DNA of 64,000 nucleotides from Bacteroidota bacterium (GTDB lineage Bacteria; Bacteroidota; Bacteroidia; NS11-12g; UBA955), in NCBI GenBank assembly GCA_013205405.1, contig JABMMZ010000065.1:3252-67251 (forward strand), written 5' to 3'. The notes beneath the pieces are model-generated. The model had not been told where the DNA came from and made no database searches. It worked only from the letters and a program-made list of their open reading frames with translations. The position numbers and the translations under genes were made by a program. Each line of letters opens with the position of its first letter. Position 1 is the stretch's first letter. Below are positions 7,843 through 31,348 of this stretch, piece after piece.

Positions 7843-8286
7843 ATGAAATTAATTAAAACAACTAATTATCCCTTACAGTGGGAAAATAGAATTGAAGAGT
7901 GGATGAATAAAAATGGCTTGTATCAATTGGGGAAATTAAACCAAAATGTAATGCATGATTTAAATTTATTTCTAAGTATTCTAAAATCTTACCCTGGCAT
8001 ATCTACAGAATTTCTTTATCAAATAAATGATTTTACTTATGGTATAAAAGTAAGTTGTAAAAACAAGAATATACCATTTATAGCTTACGTTCGTTATGTT
8101 GTAGATGCAGAAGGAGAATTAACATTTGAAATATTTTACACAAATTTTCCTGTTTGGAACAAGGAGAATTGCTCCATAGATTATCAGTATGAAACCATAA
8201 AGATTAGTGGTTCCGAAATAAACGATAGTCAATTCCTAGTTGAGCAAATCATGCAATTATATATTCTTTTTTCAGATTCAAATTAA
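7843..8286 (+). CDS. hypothetical protein, 147 aa
   Basis: ORF 82 nt downstream of the AAA+ ATPase on the same strand. No family recognised. Confidence 0.5.
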   Translation: MKLIKTTNYPLQWENRIEEWMNKNGLYQLGKLNQNVMHDLNLFLSILKSYPGISTEFLYQINDFTYGIKVSCKNKNIPFIAYVRYVVDAEGELTFEIFYTNFPVWNKENCSIDYQYETIKISGSEINDSQFLVEQIMQLYILFSDSN

Positions 8287-15200: not shown

Positions 15201-16906
15201 GCACGGGCACTTTAAAAGTTCCTACCACTGCACTAGAAGGCAATACTTTAATGCGCGTAAGACTTGGCTATTGGGATAATACTTACAGCCCATGTGGCAC
15301 CACATTAGGCGAGGTAGAGAACTATCCAGTAGAAATTAGAAAAGTGCCATTATTAAGTTATAGTGGAGATACTGCTATATGCGAAAGCACTAAATCGATG
15401 GTAAAATATAACGGCACGTTGGTAGATTCTGTAAAATGGTCGCTAAGTAATGGTGTAAAGATTTTTTCTTACAAAGGCGATTCTTTTAGCACAGTTTCTT
15501 TACCTGCTGCTAAATATTCTATTACGGTAAGAGCTTATAAATATGGTATTCTATATACAAAACCTTATGCCAATGCTTTTAGAATAATTGCTAAACCTAC
15601 TGTTTCTGCAGGTGCAGATACTAGAATATGTATAAATAAAAGTGTTATATTAACAGGTATTAGCACCGATACGTTATCATGGAATTATGGCATTTCAAAT
15701 GGTATTTCTTTTAATCCAATCATTACAAAACTATATGTATTAACTGCCAAAAACGCCAGAAACTGCAAAAATACTGATACAGTAAAAGTAACTGTTGACT
15801 CATTGCCATATGTTAACGCAGGTATAAATCAAAGAATTTGCAAAGGAAATTCTGCCACTTTAAGTGGAAACGGAGCAGGAACATTAACTTGGAATAATAA
15901 TGTAATTAATGGTGCGACATTTACACCTTCCGTTTCAAATTCTTATGTGATAACTGCTACCAATACTTTAGGCTGCATAAAAACAGATACAACAATGATA
16001 AGTTTAGATACTTTACCTAAAGCTTTTGCGGGTATCAACCAAAGAAATTGTTTTAAAATTAAAGTTGTTTTAAATGGTTCTGGAGATGGTACTTACGCAT
16101 GGAATAATAATGTTATAAATGGTGTAGCATTTGCACCTAAAATAACACAATCATATATTTTAACAGTAACAAACCCCAATAATTGTATTGGTTTGGATAC
16201 TGTATTAATAACAGTTGACACCTTGCCTTTGGTAAATGCAGGAGTAGACAAAAATATATGTAATAAAGATTTTGTTACCTTGAATGGCAGAGGTGATGGG
16301 CAATTAACTTGGGATAATGGTATTCAAAACAATATTTCTTTTAAACCTAATAATTCAAGTTCTTATGTTTTAACATCTAAAAATGTTAACAATTGCTTGA
16401 AAAAAGATACTGCAAACATAACAGTCAATAAACCTGATACGGGTATTACTAAATTAAATAATACTACCTTACAAGCCAATGCCATATCTGCCCAATACCA
16501 ATGGATAAATTGTAATAACTTTCAAGTAATTCCAACGGCTACCAATAGAGAATATACGGCCACAGCTAATGGAAATTACGCAGTAGTAGTAACACAAAAT
16601 AATTGTACCGATACTTCTAAATGCATTAATTTATTACCATTAAGTGTTACACAAATTATTCAATCAGATATGTTAAAAATATATCCGAATCCTACAAATG
16701 GAATTATAACTGTAGAGTATAAAAGTAATAAATTATTTTCATACATATTAACCGACTTAAATGGAAAAATAGTATTAAAATCTTCTTCTAATATATTAAA
16801 CAGAGCGAATATTGTGCTTGATATTTTTGAAAGTGGCATTTATATTATTTCCATTAAAGACGCTGACAGATTGAGTAAAAATGTAATGATAAATTTAGTA
16901 AAATAA
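12272..16906 (+). CDS. very large T9SS-secreted protein: sortilin/BNR-like beta-propeller repeats, four tandem ~70-aa Cys-containing repeats, and a Por/T9SS C-terminal sorting domain
   Basis: ATG 12272 gives the signal peptide MKKYILFLTFICFFTHKLFAQ. Repeated S-x-D/N-x-G-x-T/S-W/F motifs are present (STNGGSSF, STDNGVTW, SKDSGNTF, SKNLGNTW). The C-terminus reads KIYPNPTNGIITVEY...GIYIISIKD. The track start 12191 overlaps rnc. Confidence 0.85.
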   Translation: MKKYILFLTFICFFTHKLFAQTPVYQAIMQDFNINFYTVCDSAEAYFKNKDKGKGSGYKPFLRWKYENESKYFPSGNRILDHYLPAKEFDRIKESEVIKKEEIDKNIEIGVSELSLFPTGTGWQSLGPDSISNITIHYASGLGRVEYVDINKNNAQQIYIGSRSGGLWRTSNGSSTWIHHTDFLPASGVNAIAASPSNFDSVLINVRIAENGTSFGIYRSVDGGVNFTKTPFNPTNLGFGGLGSNFQINIIKYHPKIKNLVFVGTDRGIFKSTDNLVTWTRLNTSWNVRDIEFHPTKDSIIYIYENYYWGTNKNNIFKSTNLGVSYSALSAISGNSDASINISLSAVCANCIFLSSNNGIWKSTNGGTTFTTTVSPAPTGVSLYYATPNDNDTSKYVSGYVDLFRSTNGGSSFNQCTWWSLGSAQNGNGNFQQNFKNSTNYVHADCNYLTCVNGTYYGCTDGFLVKSTDNGVTWKKLSTKVGIRENYNLGLSQSNHYKSISGSQDNGTSIKIENGWIEAYGADGMECLIHPLNENWMIGSTQYGGRIRTLDNGTSINGIAPSGQSAWWIAPMFYDPNNHMTIYSIGVNVHKSTNFGTTWRTLGAPSSFSGNQANYGTIAENNSSLIVLTNGEKIELSKDSGNTFTSIKNTLPNQWITDVIFAPKNDSIIIVTYDDYQNNSQKVYISKNLGNTWTNITYNLGNMPIHSTVIDHSDSANIYLGAAIGIYKKSMIGKTWKLYNKDLPNVSIKELEINNGSNTIKAATWGRGIWEYALVDRENYPSIVKTNITSEITANSPKSSVKQTVTSNIESKDSLTSVFVKWSYNTPKFNNYIAMSKTSGITWTSKKPLPDSIAGTKIFFKVFAVGKNKDTSETYKFMYTLYPFEYCAAKGEKVNGNLFINRLRVANIDNNNTGNTLDTTYANKKVILYIDSTYTITGDINTGWTENDFHTWIDYNRDASFSVTEKVAADINTGSLGTGTLKVPTTALEGNTLMRVRLGYWDNTYSPCGTTLGEVENYPVEIRKVPLLSYSGDTAICESTKSMVKYNGTLVDSVKWSLSNGVKIFSYKGDSFSTVSLPAAKYSITVRAYKYGILYTKPYANAFRIIAKPTVSAGADTRICINKSVILTGISTDTLSWNYGISNGISFNPIITKLYVLTAKNARNCKNTDTVKVTVDSLPYVNAGINQRICKGNSATLSGNGAGTLTWNNNVINGATFTPSVSNSYVITATNTLGCIKTDTTMISLDTLPKAFAGINQRNCFKIKVVLNGSGDGTYAWNNNVINGVAFAPKITQSYILTVTNPNNCIGLDTVLITVDTLPLVNAGVDKNICNKDFVTLNGRGDGQLTWDNGIQNNISFKPNNSSSYVLTSKNVNNCLKKDTANITVNKPDTGITKLNNTTLQANAISAQYQWINCNNFQVIPTATNREYTATANGNYAVVVTQNNCTDTSKCINLLPLSVTQIIQSDMLKIYPNPTNGIITVEYKSNKLFSYILTDLNGKIVLKSSSNILNRANIVLDIFESGIYIISIKDADRLSKNVMINLVK
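15596..16432 (+). repeat. four tandem, diverged ~210-nt (about 70-aa) intragenic repeats encoding Cys-containing beta-rich modules
   Basis: The protein-level period is visible four times: (A/V)NAG.(D/N)..IC......L.G.G.G...W(N/D)N....G..F.P.....Y.LT..N...C...DT..(I/V)TVD(S/T)LP. Confidence 0.7.
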
Positions 16907-24866: not shown

Positions 24867-27035
24867 TTGAAACATTTATTCCTTTTATTCTTTTTACTCA
24901 TATTTATCCCTGTTTTTTCGCAAATTGGTTATAAAATACAGGCTAATTTAGTAGCTAAAAATAATATACAAATAGATGGGTTAATAAGTGAATTGTCATG
25001 GAAAAATGCCGACAGCATTCATCAATTTTGGCAAAACTTTCCCTACGATACATCAATAGCAGAAACTAAAACCACAGTTAAGGTTTTAACAGATGATAAG
25101 TTTTTATATATTGCTGCTAATTGCTACGATGGCCTAAAAGGTAATTATATAGTTACCTCCTTAAAAAGAGATTTCTCTTATCCTAAAAGCGATGCCTTTT
25201 CTGTTCATATAGATCCATTTAACGACAATGCCAATGGCTTTGCATTTACTGTTAGTCCATTTGGTGTGCAACGAGAAGGACTGATACAAAATGGCGGCAA
25301 CCAAGGCGTAACTACCGACTGGGATAATAAATGGCTTACAGAAACAAAATTGCATTCATGGGGCTATACTGTTGAAATGGCTATTCCGTTTAAAAGTTTG
25401 CGGTACAACAATGGCGATAGTATTTGGCATATTAATTTTTCGAGAAACGATTTAAAACGAAACGAAAACAGTACATGGAAACCTGTGCCTCGAAATATGA
25501 ATATTGCAAGTTTGGTAAATACTGGTATTTTAAAATGGCAGACGCCTCCTCCTAAACAAGGTTTTAATGCCGCCATCATACCTTATATAATTGCCTCTAT
25601 TAATCAACCCAATAGTCAGAAAGATGAATTTTCACAAAAATACAATGCTGGTTTAGACGCTAAAATAGTGCTCACACCATCTCTTAATTTAGATATTACT
25701 ACAAATCCAGATTTTGCTCAGGTAGAGGTTGATAGACAAGTGATAAATTTAACACGCTTTAGCATTTTTTTTCCTGAAAGACGCAATTTTTTTATTGAAA
25801 ATTCGGATTTATTTGCTTCATTTGGATTTAGACAAATTCGCCCTTTTTTTAGCCGACAAATAGGGCTTAAAAAGGGGATTAATATTCCAATTTATTATGG
25901 CGTTCGACTAAGCGGAAAATTTGATGCCAACTGGCGAATAGGTGCTATGAATATTCAAACCAACGATTCAAATAATTATAGTGTAGCAGCCTTTCAGCGG
26001 AAAATATTCAGCAGTAGTAATATTGCAGGTATATTAGTAAACAAAGTACAACTATTTAATCCTGAAAAATTTAACCGTGTAGCAGGTTTAGATTATAATT
26101 TACAAAGTAAAAATGGTAAATGGTTAGGTAAAGCTTTTTGGCACCAATCCTTTAGTGAAGTAAAAAATAACAACTCTTTTGCCAATGCCACCTGGTTATA
26201 CTTTACAGATAAAACCATGTATTTTATGTGGAACCACGAATATGTAGATAAAACTTTTAATGCTACTACTGGCTTTGTACCCCGTACGTCTTACTATGAT
26301 ATGAAAACGGGCAAAACCTTAATGCTCTCTTATTTTAGAATTGAGCCTGAAGCTGGTTATAAATTTTTTCCAAAATCAAAACTTATTAATAATATAAACC
26401 CTGAAGTTTATAGTGATATTTATAAAAATTCAGATTGGAGTAAGAACGATATTTTAGTAACACCTTCGGTAGCAATTAATTTTCAAAATAGTGCCATTGC
26501 TTCTGTTTTATATAATATTCATCAAACTAATTTATTGTTCGATACTGATGTATTAGGCAATGGTAAAGATACTTTTTACAAAGGAATTTATAATTATAGA
26601 TATTTTTCAGCTTTTTTTCAATCAAACAAACGCAAGTTATTTTCTTACTATTTAAATTCTACTATTGGTGAATTTTACAATGGCAAAAGACAAAATTTTA
26701 AAGCTGATTTAAGTTATAGAATTCAACCTTATTTTATATTTGGACTGAGTAGTTCTTTAGATTTAATTCAAATAAATTATGCCACTAAAAAATTAGATAG
26801 AAGCTTGATTTTAATAGCCCCATCAGTTGAAATTTCCTTTACTAAAAAACTATTTTTTACCACCTTTGCTCAATACAATTCGCAATTAGATAATATTAAT
26901 ATCAATACACGGTTACAATACCGTTTTAAACCAATGAGTGATTTCTATCTAGTTTACAGCGATAATTATTTTACTACTTGGAAAGCCAAGAATAGAGGAA
27001 TTACTTTAAAATTGGTGTATTGGTTGAATACTTAA
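24867..27035 (+). CDS. outer-membrane-associated protein with an N-terminal CBM9-like domain (DUF5916-like family)
   Basis: 722 aa with signal peptide [19 protein letters not shown]. The segment [23 protein letters not shown] is typical of the family as I recall it. The C-terminal two-thirds are beta-rich with aromatic residues. The start is a TTG. Confidence 0.5.
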
Positions 27036-30000
27036 ACTACAACATTCACAATTCTACCTTTTACTACTATTATCTTTTTAGGGGCTTTGCCTTCTAAGTA
27101 TTTTTGAGTTTGCTCGTTTGCAATTACTTCATTTTCAATCTCTTTTAGATCTTTATCTAAAGCAAAATTGAGATTGAATTTTACCTTGCCATTAAATGAA
27201 ATAGGGTAATTAAATTCATTTTCTATTAAATATTCAGCATTAAATAATGGCCATTCGGCTTTTTCTATACTTTGTTGGTTACCACATAATTTATAAAGTT
27301 CTTCAGTAATATGCGGTGCATAAGGCGATAATAAAATAATAAATTTTTCTAAAATGGCCAATTTATTACACTTTAAATCTTGCAACTCGTTTACACATAC
27401 CATAAAGGCACTAACAGAGGTATTAAAGCTAAAATTTTCTATGTCTTCTGTAGCTTTTTTGATAGTTTTGTGTAAAATTTTAAGTTCAGCTTTTGTAGGT
27501 TCCTCTTGACTAATTGCAAAATCTTCGTTGGCATTATTGTGAAATAAACGCCAAGTTTTTTTCAAAAAGCGGTGAACGCCTTCAATGCCCTGTGTACTCC
27601 ATGGTTTGGCATCTTGCAATGGCCCTAAAAACATCTCATATAAACGCAAAGTATCTGCACCATATTGAATACAAATATCATCGGGGTTTACTACGTTATG
27701 CCAACGTTTGGACATTTTGCCTACTTCATTTCCACACAATAATTTGCCATCTTCTAGCTCAAATTCTGCATTTTGAAATTCAGAAGGACGCCATTTTTTT
27801 AAGCCTTCGATATTTACTACATTATTTGAAACTAAATTAATATCTATATGTATTGGAGTAGTTTGATAATTATCTTTTAACCCAAACGAAATAAATTTAT
27901 TTTCCTCATTTACTCTATATATGAGCATTGACATACCTTGTATCATTCCTTGATTTACCAATTTCTTAAATGGTTCTTCAAAAGGAACAATGCCTATATC
28001 TTTTAAAAATTTACACCAAAAACGGCTATACAATAAATGCCCTACTGCATGTTCGCTACCGCCAATGTATAAATCTACATTTTGCCAATAATTAATCGCA
28101 TTTTTATTAGCCAATGCTTCCGTATTATTAGCATCCATATACCTTAAATAATACCATGATGATCCTGCCCATCCTGGCATAGTAGTGTTTTCTAGAGGAT
28201 TGCCTTTGTATTGCCAATTATCTGCTCGTGCCAATGGTGGTTCGCCTGTTTCGGTAGGTAAATATTTATCTACTTTTGGCAATATTAGAGGCAAATCACT
28301 TTCATCCATTGTTTTGGGTATGCCATTATCATAATAAACTGGAATAGGCTCTCCCCAGTATCTTTGGCGCCCAAATACAGCATCTCGCAATCTAAAATTA
28401 ATTTTACCCTTACCTAATTGTTTTTCTTCTATAGTTTGTATGGCTTTCTTAATAGCATCTTTTACGTCTAAGTCATTCAAAAAATCAGAATTTATCATTT
28501 TACCAATTTTTAGATCATAGGAGGCCCCTCCAAAATCCTCCCCAATAAGGAGGACTTCCTTTTCTGGTAAAACTACTTCTTTAATAGGCAAATTAAAATG
28601 TTTTGCAAAAGCATAATCTCTGCTATCATGCGCTGGAACGGCCATTACAGCGCCTGTGCCATAGCCTGCTAGTACATAATCGCCTATCCAAATAGGTATT
28701 TGTTTACCAGTAAAAGGATGCTTAGCATAAGTTCCAGAAAATACGCCTGTAATATTTTTAACATCAGCTTGTCTTTCTCTTTCACTGCGTTTTTTGGTGG
28801 TATTTATATACTCTAATACTGGTTCTAAATAATCTTTATGCGTAATTTGTAATACCAATTCATTTTCTGGCGCTAATGTTAAATATGAAACACCAAAAAT
28901 AGTATCTGGACGAGTAGTAAAAACTTCAATAAAAAAAGAATTTTCAATTGGGTTATCGATATTATTTTCTAAAGTATATATTTCCTTTGCCTCATCCTCC
29001 TTATTATCGGAGCGGGCTTTTATCCCCTTTTCCGCAGTAGAATTGCAACTCGGTTTGTAGTATTTTATAAAATCTTTTATTTTGTTTAAAACACTTTCAA
29101 CATTATTTGTGATTTCATCATTTGTGAATCTTAATATCTTAAATCCTAGTTCATTTAATATTAATGTTCTATTCTCATCTGAGATAATATTATCAGGTAA
29201 ACTATGAATTAATCCATCTATTTCTAATATTAAAGAATATTCGAACGATACAAAATCAACAATAAATTTATTGATAATATATTGCTTTCTGAATTTTATG
29301 TTTTCAAATTGTCTATCCCTTAAAATTTTCCATAAAATGTCTTCTTCCTTAGTAGGATTTTCTTTTTGGGTTTTGGCTAATTTTATAAGTTTGTGGTAAG
29401 TATCTTTGTCTGCTGCTTCAAACGACACACTGCTATTTTTTGCTTTGGAAGGTGCTTTAACTATTTCCCCACTATTGTTGATAGGTATTTGAGTTAAAAC
29501 ATTTGAATCCACCTCAAACTTTATAGAACATCCTTCGCTTTTCCCTATCCAATTGCGTTGGGCTTCCTTAATACTATCTGTCCAATCTAGGGTTTCTAAA
29601 TCATTTAATAGTCTATCGGCATAAGCTGAAATTCTTAAACTCCATTGACTCATCAATTTTCTTTCTACAGGATAACCGCCTCTTTCGCTTACGCCTTCTT
29701 TTATTTCATCATTGGCTAATACAGAACCCAGAGCAGGACACCAATTCACCATTATTTCGCTTAAGAAGGCCAATCTAAAATTGAGCAATTCACCCGTCTT
29801 TTGTTTTTCTGTAAATTTTCTCCATTCAAGCTTAGTAAAATTTATTTTGTCAGATTGGTAACCATTCTTTTCAAATATTTTAATTAAAGATGAAATATCT
29901 TCTGCTTTATTGGTTTTTGGATTATACCAACTATTAAATAATTGAATAAAAATCCATTGTGTCCACTTGTAATAATCAGGGTTTGAAGTTCTAATTTCTT

Positions 30001-30367
30001 TATCCCAATCAAAAGAAAATCCTATTCTATCTAATTGTTTGCGGTAACGTATTATATTCTCATGTGTAGTAATAGCAGGATGTTGTCCTGTTTGAATAGC
30101 ATATTGCTCGGCAGGTAATCCAAAGGCATCATATCCCATGGGGTGCAGCACATTAAATCCTTTGTGGCGTTTAAAGCGAGACACAATATCGCTAGCAATA
30201 TAGCCAAGTGGATGGCCAACGTGTAAGCCTGCACCACTAGGATAAGGAAACATATCTAATACATAGTACTTGGGTTTATCCGAAATATTTTCTGCTTTGA
30301 ATGTTTTATTTTCTGCCCAGTATTTCTGCCAGTTTTCTTCTATTGAATTAAAATGATAAGATGCCAT
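27032..30367 (-). CDS. leuS: leucine--tRNA ligase carrying an in-frame insertion of ~190 aa that contains a DUF559 (Vsr-like endonuclease) domain
   Basis: 1111 aa with HIGH-type motif [11 protein letters not shown], the CP1 entry TTRPDTIFG, and KMSKS as GKMSKRW. Residues about 287-477 (nt 28937-29509) interrupt the short linker between [15 protein letters not shown] and [12 protein letters not shown]. Confidence 0.93.
29063..29395 (-). other. DUF559 / very-short-patch-repair-endonuclease-like domain embedded in leuS
   Basis: The sequence [99 protein letters not shown] matches the DUF559 pattern (NPT..E..LW..LR......F.RQ.....Y.vDF......l.iElDG..H.......D..R...L...G..vlRF.N.ev). Confidence 0.8.
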
Positions 30368-30380
30368 AATTTACAAAGTG

Positions 30381-30388
30381 CAAAAATA
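30381..30388 (-). promoter_or_regulatory. -7 promoter element (TAnnTTTG) for leuS
   Basis: The minus strand reads TATTTTTG, 13 nt upstream of ATG 30367. Confidence 0.45.
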
Positions 30389-30469
30389 ACAGAAATAAAC
30401 AGATGGGGACAATTACAATTAAAGAAATTATACAAATTAAATAATGTAATGTAAATTGCGCCTTATATT

Positions 30470-31348
30470 TTGGATACAAACAAAACTTATAAAAAACGTA
30501 CTTCATTTTGGCCTACTATTATTAGTATGTCGCTTGTATTGTTCATTATTGGGCTTATAGGGCTTATTAGTATTCATACCAAACAGTTACTATCGCATTA
30601 TAGAAATAATTTTGAAGTTTATGTATATTTTACTTTAGAAACAACTGCAGAGCAAGCGAAAGCAAGCGAAGTGGAAATAAAAAAATTGACTTTTGTTAAT
30701 AGTTCCACATTTTTAGACAAGGAAATAGTCGCACGTAAGGAAATTCAATCTACTGGCAACGACTTTATAAAAACTTTAGGATATAATCCATTTCCTCATA
30801 GTTTAGAAGTACACATTAATGCAGAAATGGTAGATGCTCAAACAATGACTAATGTAGAAAAAGCATTAAGAAAAATAGCCAATGTAGATGATGTAAAATA
30901 TGCAAAGAATGAATTTGGAAAAGATTTATTGACTCAGATAAATACTAACTTTAAAACTGTAGAGTTGGTATTATTAGCCATTGCCGTAATATTGCTATTA
31001 ATTGCAATTGCTTTAATTAATAGCACTGTTAGACTTAATATGTTTGCCCGAAGATTTATAATCAAAAGTATGCAGTATGTAGGCGCTTCCGATTGGTTTA
31101 TTATTAAGCCATTTATTGGCATGTATTTAACCTATGCAATAGTCTCTTCGCTTATTGCTATTGGCCTGTTAGGCAGCATTGTTTACTTATTCGAAAAACA
31201 AATGAATGAGAGTAATTGGCAATTATTTTTACCTCAATATGGATTACTAGCAGGATTTTTACTACTTTTGGCAATTGTAATTGTACTTGCAAGTGTATTT
31301 TTCTCAACAAGACGTTACTTAAAATTAAAAATAGACCAATTATATTAA
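30470..31348 (+). CDS. ftsX: cell-division ABC-transporter permease FtsX
   Basis: 292 aa with one N-terminal TM, a periplasmic domain, then three C-terminal TM helices. Its size and topology are typical of FtsX. The start is a TTG. Confidence 0.75.
   Translation: MDTNKTYKKRTSFWPTIISMSLVLFIIGLIGLISIHTKQLLSHYRNNFEVYVYFTLETTAEQAKASEVEIKKLTFVNSSTFLDKEIVARKEIQSTGNDFIKTLGYNPFPHSLEVHINAEMVDAQTMTNVEKALRKIANVDDVKYAKNEFGKDLLTQINTNFKTVELVLLAIAVILLLIAIALINSTVRLNMFARRFIIKSMQYVGASDWFIIKPFIGMYLTYAIVSSLIAIGLLGSIVYLFEKQMNESNWQLFLPQYGLLAGFLLLLAIVIVLASVFFSTRRYLKLKIDQLY

Follow-up and report, generated by a model that had tools for sequence, protein, structure and literature searches.

In REP/REPIN-RAYT systems, an enzyme gene sits between inverted structured repeats, each with a box beside a hairpin, and solo and doublet copies of the repeat outnumber copies of the enzyme. 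Another structured repeat is the G/C-rich intrastrand triplex motif (TM) of Holder et al. (2015), exemplified by CCCTCTCCC-TGT-GGGAGAGGG-CCG-GGGTGAGGG; beside its pyrimidine/purine hairpin stands a G-rich box that is a mirror of the purine arm, and the strand can thereby take up a triplex form (PMC4666352). TMs are dispersed and multi-copy in many phyla, in hundreds of genomes; E. coli carries 23 of them in 4.6 Mb, always intergenic, mobility functions were never found nearby by the describers, and triplex formation was shown by circular dichroism and nuclear magnetic resonance for TMECO only (PMC4666352). Here we describe a 64,000-nucleotide stretch of DNA from a Bacteroidota bacterium (GenBank assembly GCA_013205405.1, contig JABMMZ010000065.1, positions 3,252 to 67,251; hereafter the window), in which the leuS gene for leucyl-tRNA synthetase (LeuRS) contains an in-frame DUF559 domain. 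With somewhat better than even confidence, we read this insert as a copy, old and probably unable to move any more, of a mobile cassette in which a DUF559 open reading frame (ORF) lies between two inverted TMs. Such a TM-DUF559-TM cassette is apparently an undescribed kind of mobile DNA.

How do the described systems compare? The ends of the cassette are built like TM/TMECO and in nearly the same sequence: pyrimidine and purine arms enclose a 3-nt loop, and after a short gap comes a G-rich box that mirrors the purine arm. Unlike those TMs, the pair found here is inverted around a nuclease ORF and lies inside coding sequence that would be read through, as does a solo TM. The resemblance to REP-RAYT lies in inverted structured repeats around an enzyme gene and in the majority held by solo and doublet copies, and the differences lie in the enzyme (a PD-(D/E)XK DUF559 protein, not an HUH/Y1 transposase of the TnpA_REP kind), in the triplex type of the repeats and in the in-frame residence within genes. 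Rickettsia palindromic elements (RPEs) are palindromic selfish DNA translated in frame in unrelated housekeeping genes, at positions that fit the host fold (PMC10969869), but an RPE spans ~150 bp and has no enzyme, whereas the cassette carries a nuclease under selection, has other ends and is found in Bacteroidota and Ignavibacteriota; the analogy is functional only.

Vsr-like, or EDxHD, endonucleases such as I-Bth0305I (Dassa et al. 2009; Taylor et al. 2011) belong to the fold superfamily predicted for DUF559 and likewise invade conserved genes. They are, however, free-standing ORFs in group I introns or between split-intein halves, where splicing restores the host protein, whereas the nuclease of the LeuRS insert is encoded as part of the host polypeptide; I-Bth0305I is also without equivalents of the insert's D384 and H388 in the alignment with PDB entry 3R3P. 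The ShiLan domain of actinobacteriophage methylases is a homing-like insert, neither intein nor intron, that has no stops in the frame of its host and, by prediction, forms a loop outside the host protein (Arsenault et al. 2025; PMC11855218). Its HNH nuclease is out of frame, its host is mainly one phage methylase gene (with some similar cases surveyed) and no structured terminal repeats are described for it, whereas the cassette has the nuclease itself in frame, TM ends and many cellular enzyme hosts. Stand-alone DUF559 proteins, for example E. coli YcjD and the Neisseria protein 3HRL, have the same domain as the insert (E=1e-30 for 3HRL and E=1e-17 for NF007294) but come from separate genes, each with a start and a stop codon of its own. 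Prior art exists for separate pieces, namely TMs, in-frame palindromes, Vsr-like homing enzymes and ShiLan, and in the literature searched neither their combination nor any description of the DUF559 arrangement seen in LeuRS was found.

A DUF559 domain within LeuRS

The leuS product of the window is a bacterial LeuRS (TIGR00396 leuS_bact, 914 bits), with the match split around an insert. In insert-free relatives, 4-10 residues separate the strand that ends in ...KFxx (KFEV) from the strand IEVFTTRPD; here there are 193 extra (aa 287-479). An in-frame insertion of ~190 aa had been claimed in a first-pass annotation made from the letters of the window, and the frame and length stand, with the start corrected from 28937 to 28931. 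The annotation's apparently intact DUF559 domain is likewise borne out: PF04480 (gathering score 20.6 bits) matches at 98-103 bits (E=3.6e-28 in the whole LeuRS and 1.3e-29 in the insert alone), over profile positions 4-108 of 109, and the motif residues D371, E382, D384 and H388 are kept. These four, together with R360, Q362, D397, R400 and T401, are invariant in 21 LeuRS inserts. The only other Pfam match in the insert is a weak one to MTES_1575. Profile searches of the PDB return 3HRL, a stand-alone Neisseria DUF559 protein, at E=1e-30, and 3R3P, the catalytic domain of I-Bth0305I, at E=1.6e-5, where I-Bth0305I reads EVNG..YW and the insert has E-x-D-G..H. The core is predicted to belong to the Vsr-like PD-(D/E)XK fold.

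An AlphaFold2 (AF2) model of full-length LeuRS (mean predicted local distance difference test score, pLDDT, 77) places the insert between strands 276-286 and 479-484 of one beta-hairpin, and the insert flanks of 41 and 45 aa around the DUF559 core are predicted to be disordered. The model agrees with a nuclease that folds on its own, hangs on two flexible tethers and does not disturb the fold of the synthetase.

Several other identities for the insert were considered and rejected. As the first-pass annotation had concluded, it is not an intein: there is no Hint or intein Pfam match at E<=0.1, and the junctions V286|D287 and F479|I480 lack splice residues. A group I or II intron finds no Rfam match at E<=1 in 26500-31000, and the frame is open in all copies. 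Membership in a defence system was set aside after PADLOC returned only weak restriction-enzyme-like matches and PHROGs weak matches. Additionally, an assembly artefact is excluded because the 1111-aa LeuRS recurs identically in several independent assemblies (NCBI, JGI and ENA), labelled leucine--tRNA ligase of an uncultured Bacteroidota bacterium. Composition, to which the annotation had pointed as a further comparison, sets the insert apart from the remainder of leuS in overall GC content (27.6% vs 33.4%) but not in GC at third codon positions (22.8% vs 23.5%), and this latter match indicates a compositionally ameliorated, old resident and no recent acquisition.

Positions, ends and hosts of the cassette

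Is the insert a fixed feature of LeuRS? PF04480 is present in about half of the 120 best LeuRS relatives and is not a uniform lineage-wide domain; for example, P0003, a LeuRS of 938 aa that is 83% identical in the shared part, is without it. Mapped onto an insert-free reference, the large insertions of the relatives fall at three separate sites: site A, that of the window, within the beta-hairpin that comes first in the CP1 editing domain; site B, towards the end of that domain; and site C, ~100 residues beyond site B and just ahead of an 11-residue motif. In two LeuRS (P0094 and P0108), sites A and C are both occupied by DUF559. Bacteroidota LeuRS is also hypervariable at reference positions ~619-645 and ~684, with lineage-specific insertions of 10-37 aa that do not look TM-derived.

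Near-identical hosts carry the nuclease at different sites. P0007, occupied at site A, and P0008, occupied at site B, share 97.4% identity in their host parts, and their loci are syntenic; the site-B insert of P0008 is in turn 86% identical in protein to the site-A insert of P0015 and 92.9% identical in DNA across 506 bp, with the similarity ending abruptly on both sides and no evident similarity between the flanks of the two sites. At its empty site A, P0008 has precisely the sequence that a P0015-type allele would retain after a deletion between its two GGNGATGAGG repeats. It is plausible, as the annotation had suggested, that residence in an essential gene makes the cassette hard to lose; precise deletions do occur, with empty sites and footprints seen in LeuRS relatives. 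Solo TMs of various subfamilies stand at sites A, B and C in many nuclease-free LeuRS, and this repeated occupation of three loops by different TM subfamilies fits weak target specificity with survival in permissive loops only.

The minimal unit common to site-A and site-B copies is 474 bp long (the whole unit, ~474-506 bp) and reads 5'-CCTCACCCC-TAA-CCCCTCTCC-AAG-GGAGAGGGG ... CCCCTTCTCC-YTG-GGAGAAGGGG-CTG-GGGGATGAGG-3'. Its termini are inverted repeats CCTCAYCCCC, each with a subterminal G/C hairpin and a mirror-repeat box, and its sole ORF is DUF559, ~110 aa long and open end to end. Translation of the TM end DNA accounts for the linker peptides 'SPLTPLQGRGE' and 'SPSPLEKGLGDEA', and Pro/Ser...Gly linkers flank the nuclease in hosts other than LeuRS too. 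The intact left ends of P0007, P0015 and P0002 read GCC TCA CCC CTA ACC CCT CTC CAA GGG AGA GGG GAA.

In the 80 best loci from species-representative genomes (L009-L088), hairpins within 150 nt of the nuclease core are enriched about 30-fold (63 observed vs 2.1 expected), and pyrimidine-arm hairpins still more (55 vs 0.8). The left-end DNA is read in different frames among copies, with left hairpins in all three phases (8, 21 and 2), and stem sequences vary among subfamilies while pairing is kept. In other words, the frame changes, the kept pairing and the hairpin enrichment place the conservation in the DNA and not in the peptide. The outer box matches the mirror of its adjacent arm at a mean of 81% (33 of 45 at >=85%), against 39% and 0 of 45 for the inner-side control (P=2e-8), and the box covaries with the arm across TM subfamilies. 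The geometry of two inverted TMs with boxes outward is fixed across subfamilies and phyla. The right-end hairpin lies in one codon phase in 21 of 21 cases. Additionally, the box GGGGTGAGG holds a TGA in one frame, and in-frame cassettes use GGGGATGAGG or a stop-free frame.

Both site-A TM ends of the window have drifted to A/T, the right end has gained 6 codons and the ends are no longer able to pair; with both ends decayed, the window copy is most likely stuck. A six-frame hidden Markov model search of the window found no DUF559 copy besides that in leuS, and a hairpin scan found no perfect G/C hairpin. A relaxed TM scan found a sole TM-like unit, at site B of the same gene (0 in 20 shuffles), which has 1 stem mismatch and 1 box mismatch and in which AF2 confidence is low for aa 606-612; P0002 has an intact solo TM at the equivalent site. 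By subfamily, this solo TM is of the 'VLPxGEDLGGASY' type, which site-C cassettes have at their right end, unlike the 'SPSPLEKGLGDE' ends of site-B cassettes in other lineages.

Purifying selection acts on the nuclease. Across 12 pairs in which dS is not saturated, dN/dS is 0.06-0.16 for the nuclease core and 0.04-0.27 for host parts; for the window copy and P0002, its nearest relative with intact ends, the values are 0.155 and 0.10. The history of the element is also decoupled from that of its host. P0007 and P0015 share 95-100% nucleotide identity in the host and 70-90% in the element interior (dS 0.21 for the host vs 1.0 for the element), and an element so much more diverged than its host indicates that copies at one site have been replaced or converted. 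Other same-site pairs show element dS below host dS: 0.17 vs 0.75 for L063/L075, 0.24 vs 0.52 for L022/L037 and 0.35 vs 0.89 for L074/L084. In these three pairs and in L077/L081, the nuclease core has diverged at synonymous sites about half as much as the host, or less. The low values could reflect recent horizontal spread into the site or constraint at the nucleotide level. Sliding identity profiles give no clear co-conversion tract in the flanks, with identity mildly higher inside the element, a result that is not decisive.

LeuRS is one host among many. When a profile built from the 21 LeuRS inserts was searched against 1.84 billion representative proteins, 44,432 matched at E<=1e-3, and in 42 of the best 150 of these there are at least 80 host residues on both sides of the nuclease. 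The Pfam domains that it splits include methionine synthase (two regions), adenine deaminase, chorismate synthase, UDP-GlcNAc 2-epimerase, RecJ, CinA, trehalase, SpoIID, SpoIIE-type phosphatases, an Eco57I-type methylase and another class I aminoacyl-tRNA synthetase. One Eco57I-type restriction-modification methylase (P0122, 1214 aa) contains two DUF559 copies and tandem peptide repeats like LPSPHEGVGEGSGVRAE, resembling translated TM arrays. In the 80-locus genome set, the nuclease is embedded in a long ORF at 74 loci, and the frame is open in all 74. The methionine synthase MetH is the host at 46 loci (>=3 positions), MetRS at 9 (several positions), a MeaB-fused methylmalonyl-CoA mutase at 7, CinA at 5, acetyl-CoA synthetase at 3, and LeuRS and adenine deaminase at 2 each; an IleRS-like protein, GH2, a CoA transferase, an M23 peptidase and HsdM are single cases. 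The carriers are Bacteroidota, Ignavibacteriota and one Leptospirales metagenome-assembled genome (MAG), and since cultured isolates (Winogradskyella, Marivirga and Pedobacter strains) carry embedded cassettes, these are no MAG artefact. In Winogradskyella sediminis DSM 28134 (L015), for example, the insert lies in MetH. As one of two explanations, the annotation had raised a selfish nuclease gene that sits in frame within an essential gene, at a loop on the protein surface, and the data support it and extend it to many hosts.

Thus, the cassette is a discrete nuclease-encoding DNA unit, bounded by inverted repeats, at varied positions in near-identical and in unrelated genes. [quoted passage not shown]

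The repeats also occur apart from the nuclease. A metagenome scan for the terminal motif gave at least 120 loci; among the 142 motif matches listed, nearly all complete the hairpin and 133 have no DUF559 within 700 nt (9 have the nuclease). Solo TM loci are mostly intergenic, in DNA of 31-72% GC, and match no Rfam family other than an unrelated SAM riboswitch. Nuclease-free doublets consist of two inverted TM units 60-200 bp apart with A/T-rich spacers, and one metagenome locus is a stand-alone TM-DUF559-TM cassette of 471 bp. In E. coli K-12, ycjD, the sole annotated DUF559 gene in the region examined, ends in '...SPSP*' with its stop codon inside the loop of a degenerate hairpin; TMECO #9 lies ~170 bp downstream, and in the interval the 3' end of ycjD is duplicated in part (GGAGACGGTGCTGGAGAATATTC...). 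At the other end of the gene, the start codon falls within an inverted repeat of 16 bp without mismatch (CACCTCATTCTGACAA...TTGTCAGAATGAGGTG) (L231, NC_000913.3 1349000-1353500, locus 2200-2800). The duplicate and the inverted repeat suggest an older, rearranged cassette.

Mobilising enzyme, passenger or homing gene

What might the nuclease do? Tentatively, and as a possibility less secure than the cassette itself, we propose that DUF559 proteins are the missing mobilising enzymes of TM repeats, in a REP/RAYT-like system built on a PD-(D/E)XK nuclease that would recognise hairpin or triplex DNA, with autonomous copies that are read through and remain tethered in essential proteins without splicing. 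Under the mobile-cassette reading of the insert, insertion would be at most weakly site-specific, and survival would be confined to in-frame events in genes that the cell needs, at surface loops that tolerate them; this would account for the repeated hits of different TM subfamilies on the same three LeuRS loops. The ribosome would read straight through the cassette, so that the nuclease would be made as part of LeuRS and would borrow the promoter and ribosome-binding site of the host gene; splicing would be unnecessary because the TM ends encode flexible Pro/Ser...Gly linkers. The nuclease would have as its substrate the TM ends, folded as hairpin, cruciform or triplex; by breaking or nicking them it would copy or move the cassette, and it might mobilise solo TMs and TM doublets in trans, paralleling RAYT and REP/REPIN. 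In the probably stuck copy of the window, the open frame would be enforced by the essential host gene.

A number of points weigh against a mobile cassette with DUF559 as its enzyme. Perfect hairpins of at least 7 bp occur at one or both ends in only 43 of the 80 cassettes, and four junction pairs show no consistent target-site duplication, with no insertion-site consensus. Almost all LeuRS examples come from MAGs. We infer translation of full-length LeuRS with its nuclease from the open frame and the constraint, and transposition of the cassette from comparisons of copies between genomes. The literature searched reports neither biochemical activity of any DUF559 protein nor cleavage of TM DNA. 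A nuclease that stays constrained despite decayed ends, as in the window copy, is unexpected for a purely selfish, cis-acting role. Finally, the prevalence of TMs without a nuclease means that the link could run in reverse, with TMs as hot spots that capture genes.

This last thought leads to the alternative that the DUF559 ORF is a passive passenger: TMs would be instability hot spots, or would be moved by an unlinked enzyme, and the nuclease would be cargo for repair, restriction-like defence or defence against mobile elements, which would have reached LeuRS as a side effect of rearrangement at TMs. We think this unlikely, but it would account for TMs outnumbering nuclease copies (133 vs 9 among the matches listed), for purifying selection on a nuclease whose ends have decayed, for a weak likeness to type II and methyl-directed restriction enzymes, and for the reported tie of TMs to local genomic instability with no mobility genes nearby (PMC4666352). 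It sits poorly with the inverted-TM geometry and the constant phase of the right hairpin; a TM-ORF geometry fixed across subfamilies and phyla argues that the ORF co-evolved with the ends. Additionally, no other conserved gene accompanies the cassette (transposases, for example, are not conserved in the cassette neighbourhoods compared), and no PADLOC defence family matches beyond the weak restriction-enzyme similarity.

A site-specific homing endonuclease gene, in frame without an intein, strikes us as quite improbable. It would cut the empty LeuRS site and be copied in by repair, with the hairpins as incidental linkers or regulatory RNA. Presence and absence at identical positions among close relatives, element dS below host dS at the same site in L063/L075, L022/L037 and L074/L084, and the profile match to I-Bth0305I (3R3P) all suit such a gene; moreover, inteins, fractured genes and group I introns are all known to harbour Vsr-like homing endonucleases (PMC2677866), and ShiLan offers a precedent for a non-spliced, in-frame homing insert (PMC11855218). 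Yet cassettes 93% identical lie at two LeuRS sites without flank similarity, dozens of unrelated genes carry the module, at many different positions, and no clear co-conversion tract extends outside the element. Neither linkers nor homing would yield inverted-repeat ends with mirror covariation that also occur as solo and doublet units, and the presence of different TM subfamilies at one LeuRS loop adds to the difficulty: the repeated occupation of few loops by different elements is a misfit with three separate homing specificities.

Far less credible is a domesticated module serving LeuRS, for example in tRNA or nucleic-acid binding or in regulation of editing at the CP1 entry, which was the other explanation in the first-pass annotation. 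An intact domain with a conserved motif and a dN/dS of 0.155 despite dead ends, retained long enough for compositional amelioration, is what domestication would look like. But the module is patchy in close relatives (P0003 is without it), the same domain occupies two other loops in other LeuRS, the unit has inverted-repeat bounds, its linkers of 30-38 residues are predicted to be disordered, and it lives in more than 20 unrelated enzymes, among them hosts with no nucleic-acid substrate (MetH, CinA, trehalase and chorismate synthase); the data do not support this explanation.

Removal of the insert before LeuRS matures, whether through an intron that escaped recognition, RNA processing at the paired ends, bypassing during translation or splicing of the protein, is the least probable of all: inverted end units could pair in the mRNA of relatives with intact ends, and bypassing and non-canonical inserts are known in phages, but the frame is open through all 74 embedded genome loci and all LeuRS copies, which RNA removal would make needless, no Hint domain, splice-junction residues or Rfam intron is present, the ends in the window can no longer pair and the nuclease core is under amino-acid-level selection.

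A mobile TM-DUF559-TM cassette, if that is what the insert derives from, would have several consequences. DUF559 is a very large family of unknown function that includes E. coli YcjD, and its bracketing by TMs gives a testable hypothesis both for the family and for the repeats. Such a cassette would represent a third way to inhabit an essential gene besides introns and inteins, namely as selfish DNA translated as a tethered domain. It would also supply many natural domain-insertion experiments in aminoacyl-tRNA synthetases, MetH, RecJ and further enzymes, whose permissive loops could be used in protein engineering. As for annotation, an unflagged mobile nuclease hides in hundreds of database entries for 'leucine--tRNA ligase' and 'methionine synthase' that are longer than they should be.

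Feature coordinates and minor observations

Table 1. Features of leuS and its insert in the window, with TM doublets from other loci
Feature	Positions	Strand	Basis
leuS, LeuRS host gene, 1111 aa	27032..30367	minus	ORF; TIGR00396; Pfam tRNA-synt_1, editing and anticodon domains
In-frame insert, aa 287-479, probable relic TM-DUF559-TM cassette plus filler, site A	28931..29509	minus	Alignment with insert-free LeuRS
DUF559 nuclease core, aa 328-434, predicted Vsr-like PD-(D/E)XK	29066..29386	minus	Pfam; PDB 3HRL, 3R3P
AF2-folded nuclease domain, aa 322-438, confident alpha/beta domain	29054-29404	minus	pLDDT 65-88
Decayed left TM end, box and hairpin, 14 codons	29465..29506	minus	Codon-level comparison with P0007, P0015 and P0002
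N-linker, aa 290-321, predicted disordered, contains decayed left TM end	29405-29500	minus	pLDDT <50
Decayed right TM end, hairpin and GGGGATGAGG box, 6-codon insertion, 21 codons	28988..29050	minus	Comparison with SPSPLEKGLGDEA-type right ends
C-linker, aa 439-476, predicted disordered, contains decayed right TM end	28940-29053	minus	pLDDT <50
Solo TM unit at LeuRS site B, TCCTCCT-TATTG-GGGAGGA-TTT-TGGAGGG, in frame	28526..28554	minus	Relaxed TM scan; codon view against P0002
16-aa stretch, aa 603-618, partly encoded by the site-B solo TM	28514-28561	minus	Extra relative to insert-free LeuRS
Inverted TM doublets, MITE-/REPIN-like look	L108 2580-2712; L132 3191-3347; L142 856-1098; L149 108-264; L203 2466-2560		

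A few observations concern DNA outside the window. In IMG/VR, 22 viral contigs (L209-L230) encode distant DUF559 relatives with 25-45% identity to the insert. An IS200/IS605-type Y1_Tnp ORF (L007 13217-13533) stands at a contig end, ~10 kb from the leuS gene of P0002, and is probably unrelated. On one Bacteroidota contig (L006), a 132-aa PDDEXK_3 ORF (7877-8275) lies between two aldehyde-dehydrogenase ORFs of 489 aa and 292 aa, and a 23S_rRNA_IVP / bAvd ORF (16190-16555) lies between OEP and ACR_tran genes; these small ORFs are possibly other selfish genes wedged into or between housekeeping genes.

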